Of a DNA stretch of 64,000 nucleotides, positions 34,044 to 38,730 are shown one piece after another (within the stretch, counting starts at the first letter, position 1; the number at the start of each line of letters is the position of its first letter). The position numbers and the translations under genes were made by a program. The stretch spans positions 14,584-78,583 of the forward strand of contig CAOKAG010000001.1 of the NCBI GenBank assembly GCA_948466395.1. The letters are read 5' to 3'. Below the pieces are notes generated by a model that did not search any database, was not told the DNA's origin, and saw only the letters and a program-made list of their open reading frames with translations. This DNA is from an uncultured Mycoplasmatota bacterium (lineage in GTDB: Bacteria; Bacillota_I; Bacilli_A; RF39; UBA660).

Positions 34044-34694
34044 ATGAGTTTGGAAGATGTAGAAAAGATGTATCAAGAGTTAGAAGAATTAAGTTATAAG
34101 TTGGGATTTGTAAATACCCAAAAAGCGTTGCCATTTGCAAAACGGGTTCATGAAGGAAAGTATCGTCGGGGGAATGGTCTTCCCTATATTAGTCACCCAC
34201 TTTTTGTAGCCACTTATTTTAAAAATAGAGGGATTATAAATGATGAAGCTTGGGCCACAGGATTGCTTCATGATACTGTTGAAGACGTACCTGGTTGTGG
34301 TTTTGATTTGCAACCTTTTAGTGATTCTATTAAAAGACGCGTTCATCTCTTAGATTTTAAAAAAGGTTTATTAGAAAAAAGGAAAGCTCAACTCATTTAT
34401 ATGGAAAAGATTTTAAATGATGATTGGATTACAAATCTTACTAAAGATATTGATCGCTTTCATAATTTGTTAACTACTAAAGGGGCTTTTACTCCTTCTA
34501 AACTTGAAGATTACTTAGACGAAACCATTGCTTTGTTTTATCCTATTTTTCCAGCTCAACAACAAAAGTTTTCAGATTATTCGATGGAATTTTGCGATTT
34601 AGAAAAGAGAATTAAAAATTCTGTAAATGAACTGGATACTAATGGTTTATTTCAAAAAGAAAACAAAAGAATTTTACAATTTAAAGTCAGTTGA
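34044..34694 (+). CDS. HD-domain metal-dependent phosphohydrolase (YpgQ/YfbR-like)
   Basis: H...HD...D signature (YISHP ... LLHDTVED). Confidence 0.65.
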   Translation: MSLEDVEKMYQELEELSYKLGFVNTQKALPFAKRVHEGKYRRGNGLPYISHPLFVATYFKNRGIINDEAWATGLLHDTVEDVPGCGFDLQPFSDSIKRRVHLLDFKKGLLEKRKAQLIYMEKILNDDWITNLTKDIDRFHNLLTTKGAFTPSKLEDYLDETIALFYPIFPAQQQKFSDYSMEFCDLEKRIKNSVNELDTNGLFQKENKRILQFKVS

Positions 34695-34767
34695 ACTTGA
34701 AATCAGTTCTTTTTTTATTTAGAATACAAAGTCTAGGATACAATATACAAAAAAATAAAATATCTTT

Positions 34768-35531
34768 ATGAAGGAAAGTATAATAAAAGCAATCTAGAAC
34801 TTTTTAAGGCTATTCTTACTGACTATCAAAAGTACACTAACGATCTGCAATTAGACAATTCTTTCATTGGGTATGAAGAATTATTTAATACCCTACATTT
34901 TAAAATTTTAGATCATAACCAAAATATTGAATTATTTTATCATTTATTAGAAAAATATCATTATCGATTCTCACATTCGATTTTACTTTTTATTTCTTCT
35001 ATTTGTAATGCTACTTATTCCAATACAGAAAATTATTTTATTGAGTGTTATAAGCGCTCTCCTTTTATAACGGATATAAAAAAAGAGAAGGATTTTTACA
35101 AAATTGACTTAGGAAAAGAAAAATTTCTATTTCAAAAAGCTCCTCTTTATTTTCATGAACTAGAGTATTCGTCTTTAGAAAAACTTGCGCAAAGTCAAAA
35201 GCTTTCAGACTGTTGTCATGACAGTACTTATGAAATATGTAAAAACTTAGAAAATAGTCAAGCATTTACAGTCTTATGTCCACAAGCTTTTTTAGGACAG
35301 TATTATCATTCTTTTAGTGTTTATCAAAATCAGTGTATTGATTTAAACTATAATTGTGTTCTAGAAAAAGAAATGTATTTTTCTTTATTAAAGCCAGAAG
35401 TTATAGAAATTATTGATCATATCAATTTAGATAAAGAATTGAAAAATTATGAATATTCTAGTGGTAAGTTGTTATTTTCTGCATTAGACAATCAAATAAG
35501 ATCAAGATTAAATAATAAAAAGAGAAACTAA
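34768..35531 (+). pseudogene. About 254-codon hypothetical gene with an apparent -1 frameshift in an A4 run about 20 nt after its ATG. The main ORF at 34737..35531 has no ATG/GTG/TTG start.
   Basis: ATG AAG GAA AGT ATA ATA AAA|GCA ATC TAG stops after 9 codons, while the overlapping frame is open for 264 codons (…SNLELFKAILTDYQKYTNDL…NNKKRN*). Inserting one A would restore a single ORF. The product is Cys/His/Tyr-rich and cytoplasmic. Confidence 0.45.
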
Positions 35532-35532
35532 T

Positions 35533-37182
35533 TTATTTAATTTCTCCTTTTTCTATGTAATAAACTTTATCTGCAATTTCTTTACAATTTTCATTTGCTG
35601 AAAAAATAATAATGGTTTTCTTTCCTTTAAAGTTTTTTAAAACTTTTTTAATAAGTTCTTCATCTTTATTAGATAAATAACTTGGAAATTCATATAGGAC
35701 TAATATTTCACTATTTGTTAAAAGAAGTCTAGCGAAAGAAAGAAGATAACTTTCTCTTAGGGATAAATCCTTAATCTGGGTTTCCAATCCTCCTTTTTTT
35801 ATTATGTCATCAAATAAGGTTACACTTTTTAAAGTTTCAATTATTTTTTCTTTATTGTTACAAATTAATTTTAGATTACTATAAACTGTGCCATCATAAA
35901 AGTAAGGTTTAGTTACAATGTAATTAATATTAGTGCGATATACTTTTTTATTAAAGTCCATAATGTTAATTTTATCGATGTAACAATTTCCACTGTTTGG
36001 GGCAATAACTCTTCTCATTAGGTAAAAGATGGTTCTTTTCCCACTACTTCTTGTTCCTTTAAATAATACTATTTTATTACTAGGGATATGAAAATTAATA
36101 TTTTTTATTTCTGATAAGCCAATATCTTCTTTTGTAGGTTTATAGGACACATCTACAAAGTCGATTTCGCCTTCTATGTCGTCTTTATTTAAGTTTCCTA
36201 TAGGGAGTTCTTCTTTTAAGTCAAAATTTAAAATGATGCTTACACGATTAGTAGCGACATAAGCATTTTTGAGCTCTTTTAAAATACTTAAAAAATCAAT
36301 ACTATTGGTTACACTATCTGTGAGATAAGAGACAATAACAAAATAAACAGTTAATGTAACTAAATCATGAGAAAGTAAAAAAACTAAAAATAATGTACCC
36401 ACGTAAATAACGATTCGACAAAATAAGAAAAAATAATGATCTAAATAGGATGTTTTTACGGTCAATTCGTGTTTGGCTTTTAAAAAGTTATCATTACTTT
36501 TTCGGTACTTATCTTTCATTTTTTTGGTAATGTTTAAATCTTCTAACATGTATTTTGAATCGATGATTTCAGAAAAAACTAAAAATTCATCGTCAATGGT
36601 TTCTTTGACTTTTTTATTGGCTTTACTAATGGAGTTATTTATGCGATCCGTAATAAAGTAGTTCATTATAAGAACGACTATGAGTAAACATCCTACTGGA
36701 ATATTGATTCCAAACATATAGCCTATGGTTAGAATAATTTGAAATAAATAACGAAATTTATTACAAATGGTATCCGAAAACTTGGCTACATCGTAGACTT
36801 CACTATGAAAGATATTGATGAGTTTTTCTTTAGAATGCATACTAAAATTTTTTTCTTTGCCTTTAATTATTTTTTCAAATATTTGAGATTGAATGTTTTT
36901 ATAAGAAACGCCAACTAGAGGAACCGTGTTTCGATAATTCAAATCCCAAGATAGAGCCCTTAGAAACATAAAAAATAAGACTAAACTGGTACAAATAATA
37001 GCCATATTGTAATTACTATCAGCTAAACTTGTTGTTACTTTAGCGGCAAACATGGCTTCAGATAATAAACAAACGCTTGGTATAGCAACGGTTACGAATT
37101 GATAAATCCAATACCCTTTATGAGGTTTTGCTAAGTTGTACCACGTTTTAAACATTTTAATATTTTCTCTCATAAACTTCAC
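35533..37182 (-). CDS. ABC transporter with fused N-terminal 6-TM permease and a C-terminal ATP-binding domain carrying degenerate motifs
   Basis: Exporter-type TMD; Walker A GTRSSGKRT (non-canonical R after GK); signature region LSLRES instead of LSGGQ; Walker B ILVLYEF. Confidence 0.65.
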   Translation of the reverse strand: MKFMRENIKMFKTWYNLAKPHKGYWIYQFVTVAIPSVCLLSEAMFAAKVTTSLADSNYNMAIICTSLVLFFMFLRALSWDLNYRNTVPLVGVSYKNIQSQIFEKIIKGKEKNFSMHSKEKLINIFHSEVYDVAKFSDTICNKFRYLFQIILTIGYMFGINIPVGCLLIVVLIMNYFITDRINNSISKANKKVKETIDDEFLVFSEIIDSKYMLEDLNITKKMKDKYRKSNDNFLKAKHELTVKTSYLDHYFFLFCRIVIYVGTLFLVFLLSHDLVTLTVYFVIVSYLTDSVTNSIDFLSILKELKNAYVATNRVSIILNFDLKEELPIGNLNKDDIEGEIDFVDVSYKPTKEDIGLSEIKNINFHIPSNKIVLFKGTRSSGKRTIFYLMRRVIAPNSGNCYIDKINIMDFNKKVYRTNINYIVTKPYFYDGTVYSNLKLICNNKEKIIETLKSVTLFDDIIKKGGLETQIKDLSLRESYLLSFARLLLTNSEILVLYEFPSYLSNKDEELIKKVLKNFKGKKTIIIFSANENCKEIADKVYYIEKGEIK

Positions 37183-38054: not shown

Positions 38055-38730
38055 TTATTCTGTTTTAAACATGTCTTTTATTTCTTCCTTCGTTAATCCA
38101 GTTAATTTAATAATCGTTTCTGTATCAAATTTTTCTTTTATCATTTTCTTCGCAATTTCGATTGAATTTTGTTTTGCGCCTTCTTTTAAGCCTTCCCTTA
38201 ATCCTTCTTTCAATCCTTCTTCTTTCATTTCTTCATCAATTTGTCTTTGTAATTCTTCAGCACTACAATAAAACATTTCATCGAAAATTTGAGTATTACT
38301 TTTAATATTTTCTTTTACCATTTTTACTTCATTATCTCCTTTATAGATACACATCTACAGTATTAATATTAATCATAGTTACTGGTTTTATCTCTTTGTA
38401 CTTTTTAGAATTTGTAACTTGTCTTAACGTTAATTGGAATAAATAGGTCATGCTTTTTACTTTAAACGTCGTACTTCTACTGTAATTAATTTCAATGCCA
38501 AAATATTTTTTTTCGTTATAAAAAGGAACATCTCCAATTGAATTGACAATATGGATATTGCTTCCAATATCAGGGTGCACTAATTCTAAATTATCTTTGA
38601 ATTCTTCTATAGGAATCCCCGTGGTATGAGCAATAATTCTTGCTACATAATTTCTGATATTCTTATCTTCACTCCCTAATATTTTTTTGATTAAACTATC
38701 TTTAAGATAGAGGATTTTAAACTCTTGCAT
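38055..38730 (-). pseudogene. Rpn/YhgA-like PD-(D/E)XK nuclease ('putative transposase' TIGR01784 family) split by a frameshift into ORFs of 129 aa and 99 aa
   Basis: First ORF has ...GDVPFYNEKKYFGIEINYS... and KVKSMTYLFQLTLRQV..KKYKEIKPV, resembling the Rpn core. Second ORF has EGLKEGLREGLKEGAKQ...IAKKMI..G...E.I DUF4351-like repeats. The two ORFs overlap at 38341..38354 in different frames. Confidence 0.5.

Follow-up and report, generated by a model that had tools for sequence, protein, structure and literature searches.

A probable start-loss pseudogene for an uncharacterised, probably cysteine-dependent enzyme in an uncultured RF39 gut bacterium

Results

A long open frame without a start at its beginning

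The window (i.e., the whole 64-kb stretch of DNA that was analyzed; G+C, 29%) contains, at 34737..35531 on the forward strand, a long open frame that lies between a small HD-domain gene and a convergent ABC exporter gene. The features of this region that are used below are as follows.

34044..34694 (+): gene for a 216-aa stand-alone HD domain
34697..34725 (+): promoter-like site TTGAAA-17-TAGAAT (consensus scan, 10/12 matches), upstream of the deletion and still present
34734..34739 (+): deletion junction, where the stop codon TAG (34734..34736) now abuts codon 2, GAT (34737..34739)
34737..35531 (+): start-less coding remnant, holding codons 2-265 and the TAA of a 265-aa protein and otherwise undamaged
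34768..34797 (+): out-of-frame ATG mini-frame, MKESIIKAI*, not a start; the ATG spans the codons of conserved Tyr12-Glu13
35214..35342 (+): segment with near-invariant residues in the family alignment and the proposed Cys-His-Asp triad (Cys161-His162, 35214..35219; His192-Ser193, 35307..35312; Asp203, 35340..35342)
35373..35375 (+): first canonical in-frame start that remains, codon 213 of the frame and Met214 of the intact protein
35533..37182 (-): convergent gene for an ABC exporter
38055..38730 (-): overlapping short frames of what looks like a broken gene

As the earlier note had described, 34737..35531 is open over 264 codons. These sense codons and a closing TAA make up a single stop-to-stop frame, with the TAG at 34734..34736 directly upstream. 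Its further statement that the frame has no ATG, GTG or TTG start holds for the leading 212 codons and fails for the frame as a whole, since an ATG lies in frame at 35373. Initiation at that Met214 codon would yield only a 52-aa C-terminal fragment lacking the Cys-His-Asp triad. The 212 start-less leading codons are the largest such value in the 64-kb window (the runner-up has 94), and the 264-codon frame exceeds the longest frame found in 200 simulated 64-kb sequences of matched dinucleotide composition (mean, 136; maximum, 211). The first start comes so late because Met occurs only twice in the intact protein and the Val and Leu codons of this AT-rich gene are almost never GTG or TTG.

An Rfam scan of the 64-kb window returned no RNA families, and a small GAACT/AGTTC stem, considered as a possible terminator in the interval from the HD-domain gene to the start-less frame, did not outperform shuffled sequence (z = 0.22). 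We also considered readthrough from, or fusion with, the HD-domain gene, which lies upstream in the same frame. This was rejected, as three stops intervene (TGA 34692, TGA 34698 and TAG 34734) and the two genes occupy different frames in the intact relatives.

Neighboring genes

The convergent ABC gene stops one base away from the start-less frame, and the motifs of its nucleotide-binding domain have degenerated (GTRSSGKR for Walker A, LSLRES for the signature and LVLYEF for Walker B), both as noted earlier. Around the convergent stops (35529..35535), this one-base spacing in the window is two bases in the nearest strains, a T/A-run difference. The encoded protein combines a transmembrane and a nucleotide-binding domain, with no adjacent partner gene. 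Purifying selection on it is very strong: its gene has no indels, and dN/dS is 0.03-0.04 both inside the species and across species. One possibility is a conserved protein with an ABC fold but without ATP hydrolysis.

On the other side, the stand-alone HD-domain gene is divergent from a gene for a LysR regulator, a pairing kept in all relatives. Its product resembles only the hydrolase part of RelA/SpoT, with an NCBIfam E of 1e-10 that falls far short of the family cut-off, and is a candidate for a small alarmone hydrolase. Farther along, 38055..38730 (-) holds overlapping short frames of 99 and 129 aa with a weak match to PD-(D/E)XK transposases (Rpn-like). In relatives this region is split differently (134 + 75 aa and 102 + 86 aa), and a 1-bp indel at ~38345 within it distinguishes the window from the nearest strain.

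Intact orthologues define the true N-terminus

A protein search recovered three relatives: P0001, an intact protein of 265 aa that is 99% identical to the window frame; P0002, an intact protein of 261 aa from a sister species (70% identical); and P0003, a 149-aa fragment. The search of relatives for an intact orthologue, proposed as a check in the earlier note, was thus positive (P0001, encoded at locus L001, and P0002). That note had named a chance open frame in noncoding DNA, with no intact homologue anywhere, as the reading that would undo its proposal; homologues exist, and the frame is therefore the remnant of a real gene. The product had also been called rich in Cys, His and Tyr, and the intact 265-residue orthologue indeed has 8 Cys, 9 His and 24 Tyr, along with 2 Met and no Trp.

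The N-terminus of the intact orthologues is MDTIYKKIKYLYEGKYNK..., which lies in the same frame as the open frame of the window throughout its upstream part. In P0001, the N-terminus MDTIYKKIKYLYEGKYNKSNLELF equals the window frame from its first codon, preceded by a single Met, and that of P0002 is MERPYSKIKYLYETKYNKANLECF. The gene order common to the relatives is polA and LysR (-), the HD-domain gene and this gene (+), and the ABC exporter and efp (-). The complete 265-aa gene of L001 (on one contig with L021) occupies the same genomic position as the window frame. On that contig and on L018, the neighbors are those of the window, with flanks 99-100% identical.

A 17-bp deletion removed the ribosome-binding site and start codon

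DNA alignments of the orthologous loci place a 17-bp deletion between two GGA triplets in the window, about 30 bases upstream of the ATG at 34768. Intact relatives carry 17 extra bases at the junction, tctaGGA[gattaattaaaaatGGA]taca, and the gap falls exactly on GGAGATTAATTAAAAAT(G), in the window only. Across the junction, intact copies read ...AAAGTCTAGGAGATTAATTAAAAATGGATACAATATAC... and the window reads ...AAAGTCTAGGATACAATATAC...; in short form, the junction left by the deletion reads TCTAGGATACAAT, and the copies with the 17 bases present read TCTAGGAGATTAATTAAAAATGGATACAAT. The deletion, which is bordered by the 3-bp direct repeat GGA, cut into the Shine-Dalgarno sequence AGGAG, whose 3' part is gone together with the spacer and the ATG. 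The promoter-like hexamers lie outside it, and both positions are retained in the sister species (TTGACA ... TAAAAT); we infer from the sequence that TTGAAA-17-TAGAAT is the promoter of the gene.

The same sequence could be read as a gene whose expression is lowered rather than abolished, with translation beginning at a noncanonical codon such as ATA 34743. The deletion left an AGGA at 34735..34738 with this in-frame ATA 4 bases further on, the promoter-like site is kept and the frame is otherwise perfect. But ATA initiates very poorly, and it lies too close to what remains of the ribosome-binding site by the general standards of bacterial initiation. Moreover, sister lineages have lost the gene outright, which gives no sign of retained function. 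We regard such residual expression as very improbable.

The A4 run is not the lesion

The earlier note had sought the lesion elsewhere, in a run of four A residues (34785..34788), where a one-base slip would connect the open frame with an ATG at 34768. The ATG itself is real; it lies in the +1 frame and terminates after nine codons as described, and one added A would fuse the two frames. The intact copy in L001, 99% identical to the window, nevertheless carries the same A4 run and passes it in the open frame's own frame (...YLYEGKYNKSNLELF). The context of the run in L001 (ATAATAAAAGC) is identical to that of the window, in a single frame, and the sister species reads through the corresponding position (TATAACAAAGCG) in the same single frame.

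Conservation upstream of the run points the same way. The N-termini of P0001 and P0002 show that what is encoded ahead of the A4 run is conserved in the frame of the open frame itself: K7, I8, K9, Y10, L11, Y12, E13, K15, Y16, N17 and K18 are all kept in P0002, so that KIKYLYE-KYNK is invariant between proteins that are 70% identical, and the DNA of this stretch differs synonymously between the window and the sister species. This conservation is not in the frame of ATG 34768, which is a by-product of reading TAT-GAA, the codons of conserved Tyr12-Glu13, in the wrong frame. At 34780..34792 (ATA ATA AAA GCA, with only four A), direct reading revealed no X XXY YYZ slippery heptamer, nor did it reveal a ribosome-binding site ahead of 34768. 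The 254-aa protein that the slip would restore (MKESIIK/SNLELF...) matches no homologue. A frameshift pseudogene, a homopolymer error and a programmed -1 frameshift all need the slip and are refuted by the orthologue alignments; we give them next to no credence. What survives of the earlier proposal is the inactivation as such: the gene is real and very recently inactivated, with intact orthologues elsewhere, whereas the alignments replace the lesion, the mechanism and the N-terminus that had been assigned to it.

The inactivation appears recent and the gene was under constraint

Deletion aside, 3 synonymous and 2 nonsynonymous changes (5 of 795 bases) separate the window copy from L001. The untouched remaining frame and a nearest intact copy only 5 bases apart point to a very recent event. 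Over two aligned segments, ~10 kb compared, the nearest strain is 99.0-99.1% identical to the window. The only other indels between the window and L021/L018 in this ~10 kb are 1 base between the convergent stops, 4 and 8 bases in intergenic DNA and 1 base in the transposase-like remnant.

For the gene itself, dN/dS was 0.20-0.24 against the sister species (dS of 0.8-1.0) and 0.22-0.29 among close relatives, between their two groups. These values indicate purifying selection over most of its history, i.e., a gene constrained until recently. In no copy do the HD-domain, LysR and ABC genes on either side carry an indel, and their dN/dS is low.

The gene has been broken repeatedly in related genomes

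We then compiled the alleles of the gene in closely related genomes, eight sequences including the window, two of which (L018 and L020) are incomplete. They are listed here together with the sister-species copies.

Window: ribosome-binding site, spacer and ATG removed by a 17-bp deletion
L001 (on one contig with L021): complete and intact gene for 265 aa
L005: one base deleted at codon 35; start unaffected
L006: ATG changed to ACG, without indel
L008 (mouse-gut MAG MGBC108787): an old allele that has suffered several deletions and has ~12-13% mismatches in its largest remnant segment
L009: old allele shared with L008, plus further small deletions
L018 (GCA_948482395.1): start and sequenced parts undamaged, with a run of N within the gene
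L020: incomplete, the contig ending inside the gene where the N run of L018 begins; 3' part present and undamaged
L002-L004 (sister species): gene kept
L007 (sister-species MAG MGBC121705): 12-bp in-frame deletion at ~6070 (FKAI lost), otherwise intact

At least four independent inactivations are therefore present among the eight sampled sequences, L018 and L020 being incomplete. After repair, the coding sequences of L005 and L006 are one synonymous change apart (their contigs are 99.06% identical), from which it follows that their two lesions are separate and very recent. L018 had been a candidate for a fifth lesion and was rejected, as its interruption is a run of N in the assembly and not a mutation. 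On this contig (CAOMFV010000003.1 of GCA_948482395.1; L018/L023), 10 N inside the gene cause gene callers to report fragments of 173 and 52 aa, which mimics a pseudogene.

The flanks of L008 are 98.5% identical to L005, and divergence peaks on the pseudogene and drops on both sides. Compared with L005, L008 (5500..7000) is 89% identical on the pseudogene, 96% over the adjacent 500 bases and 98-99% beyond; L009 likewise carries the old allele. The peak may stem from an imported DNA segment or from a long-standing polymorphism in which the gene works in some alleles and is broken in others, and an old decayed allele on locally divergent DNA would fit the latter. Genes flanking the start-less frame in the window match MGBC108787 at 94-98%. 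The two retrieved MAGs are assigned to genus UMGS1217, family CAG-1000, order RF39, class Bacilli, in the supplement of the Mouse Gastrointestinal Bacteria Catalogue (PMC8763404). Judged by these nearest relatives, the window would derive from an uncultured bacterium of the mouse gut that belongs to UMGS1217.

These alleles also bear on whether the 17-bp deletion might be an artefact of assembly or consensus calling, the gene being intact in the organism. The nearest relatives, L001 and L018, retain the 17 bases, and the window allele was not found in a second, independent assembly: when it was sought in other assemblies, the HD-domain protein went unmatched and the 52-aa fragment led only to the scaffold-gap artefact of GCA_948482395.1. 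The artefact keeps a small probability for this reason. Set against it are the precise excision of 17 bp between GGA repeats, which is unlike homopolymer, coverage or typical sequencing errors; the remainder of the window, which aligns to relatives with very few indels; and the independent, real lesions of the same gene in other samples, by which its loss occurs in nature. We consider an artefact improbable.

An unnamed protein family with a proposed Cys-His-Asp site

An exhaustive profile search returned 116 representative clusters at E < 1e-3, mostly of 250-290 aa. Among 63 aligned members, whose identity to the query is 15-71%, conservation reaches 90% or more at C161, H162, T179, H192, S193, D203 and A250. 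The remaining Cys and His are not conserved, so the richness in these residues is no sign of a metal site. Neither the query nor any of the 63 members gave a consistent Pfam match at E <= 0.1; NCBIfam, PHROGs, PADLOC and a PDB profile search gave nothing meaningful for the family, and Foldseek against PDB and viral structures gave nothing significant. In the sources of the 116 clusters and search matches, no member bears a name.

With the family alignment, AlphaFold produced a model with a pLDDT of 96.5 and a pTM of 0.92 (with a two-sequence alignment, the pLDDT was 42 and the model useless). The model has a helical N-terminal domain (residues 1-106), then a small sheet and then a C-terminal domain, in which Cys161 opens a helix (161-171), His192 lies in a strand (189-197) and Asp203 ends a strand (200-203). 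At the level of secondary structure only, this fits the layout of transglutaminase-like/papain-like hydrolases, with Cys on a helix and His and Asp on strands. The family shares with these enzymes a conserved Cys, His and Asp in that order (C161, H192 and D203), the members compared being LapG-type transglutaminase-like cysteine proteinases, the SseI catalytic domain, PeiW and protein-glutaminase. Unlike them, it has no detectable similarity to Pfam or PDB entries, an N-terminal helical domain of its own (~110 residues), no signal peptide and no conserved neighborhood. On the strength of the model and alignment, we propose Cys161-His192-Asp203 as a catalytic triad. The protein is probably an uncharacterised cysteine-dependent enzyme, and we predict a cytoplasmic thiol-dependent hydrolase or transferase that would act like this superfamily, with no match to a defined family in the searches above.

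The neighborhoods of distant members all differ and include the interval between lepA and infB, a reverse transcriptase with an HTH-CYTH gene, and YjbR and MgsA genes. Since they are wholly different, the gene appears to be a stand-alone unit whose context offers no functional clue. At one of these loci (L010, 2214..4239; L011, 2901..4902; L012, 455..2108), a member that is 47% identical is divergent from an RVT_1 gene of ~320 aa, with a spacer of ~275 bases, and an HTH-CYTH gene follows downstream in convergent orientation. Such an arrangement may belong to a retron-like or defence locus.

Discussion

We read 34737..35531 as a recently inactivated gene, a start-loss pseudogene, with a probability of roughly 0.88. 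A syntenic intact orthologue exists, and the next ATG, GTG or TTG in frame comes after Cys161, His192 and Asp203. The intact gene would be a stand-alone unit encoding a 265-aa cytoplasmic protein, transcribed from a sigma-70-type promoter of its own and translated from an ATG behind an AGGAG ribosome-binding site. The pattern suggests that the 17 bp between the GGA triplets were lost by replication slippage or by a microhomology-mediated deletion. The gene body would possibly still be transcribed, leaving ribosomes without a start site, and the next usable ATG, codon 214, would lie beyond the catalytic residues.

The locus resembles start-loss pseudogenes of reduced bacterial genomes, in which a single lesion removes the ribosome-binding site and ATG and leaves the rest of the frame undamaged, with an intact syntenic orthologue and other lesions in related strains. 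It does not differ from these in kind; what stands out is how often, with few genomes sampled, one small gene has been hit independently. Its likeness to programmed -1 frameshifting or homopolymer phase variation (an ATG, a short A run and a long frame next to it) is superficial: the upstream frame here is not conserved as coding, and the lesions in relatives are not at repeats. For annotation, the locus is best recorded as a pseudogene with a deleted start, as repair at the A4 run would invent a nonexistent protein.

RF39 genomes are small and host-dependent, and continuing gene decay fits this background. The pattern of alleles fits recent dispensability of the gene in this genome-reduced lineage. 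Selection for gene loss is possible, but in so few genomes it would look the same as relaxed selection. That loss was selected and not merely tolerated, given at least four knockouts in one mouse-gut RF39 species group and three very recent single lesions, seems to us doubtful, though not negligible. If it were true, a recent change of the gut or host environment would have made the Cys-His-Asp enzyme costly.

The analysis has also brought to the surface an unnamed family of 116 representative clusters that has no Pfam model, a confident predicted structure and a likely Cys-His-Asp site. For biology, the finding is of modest interest, as gene decay caught under way in an uncultured, genome-reduced gut lineage.
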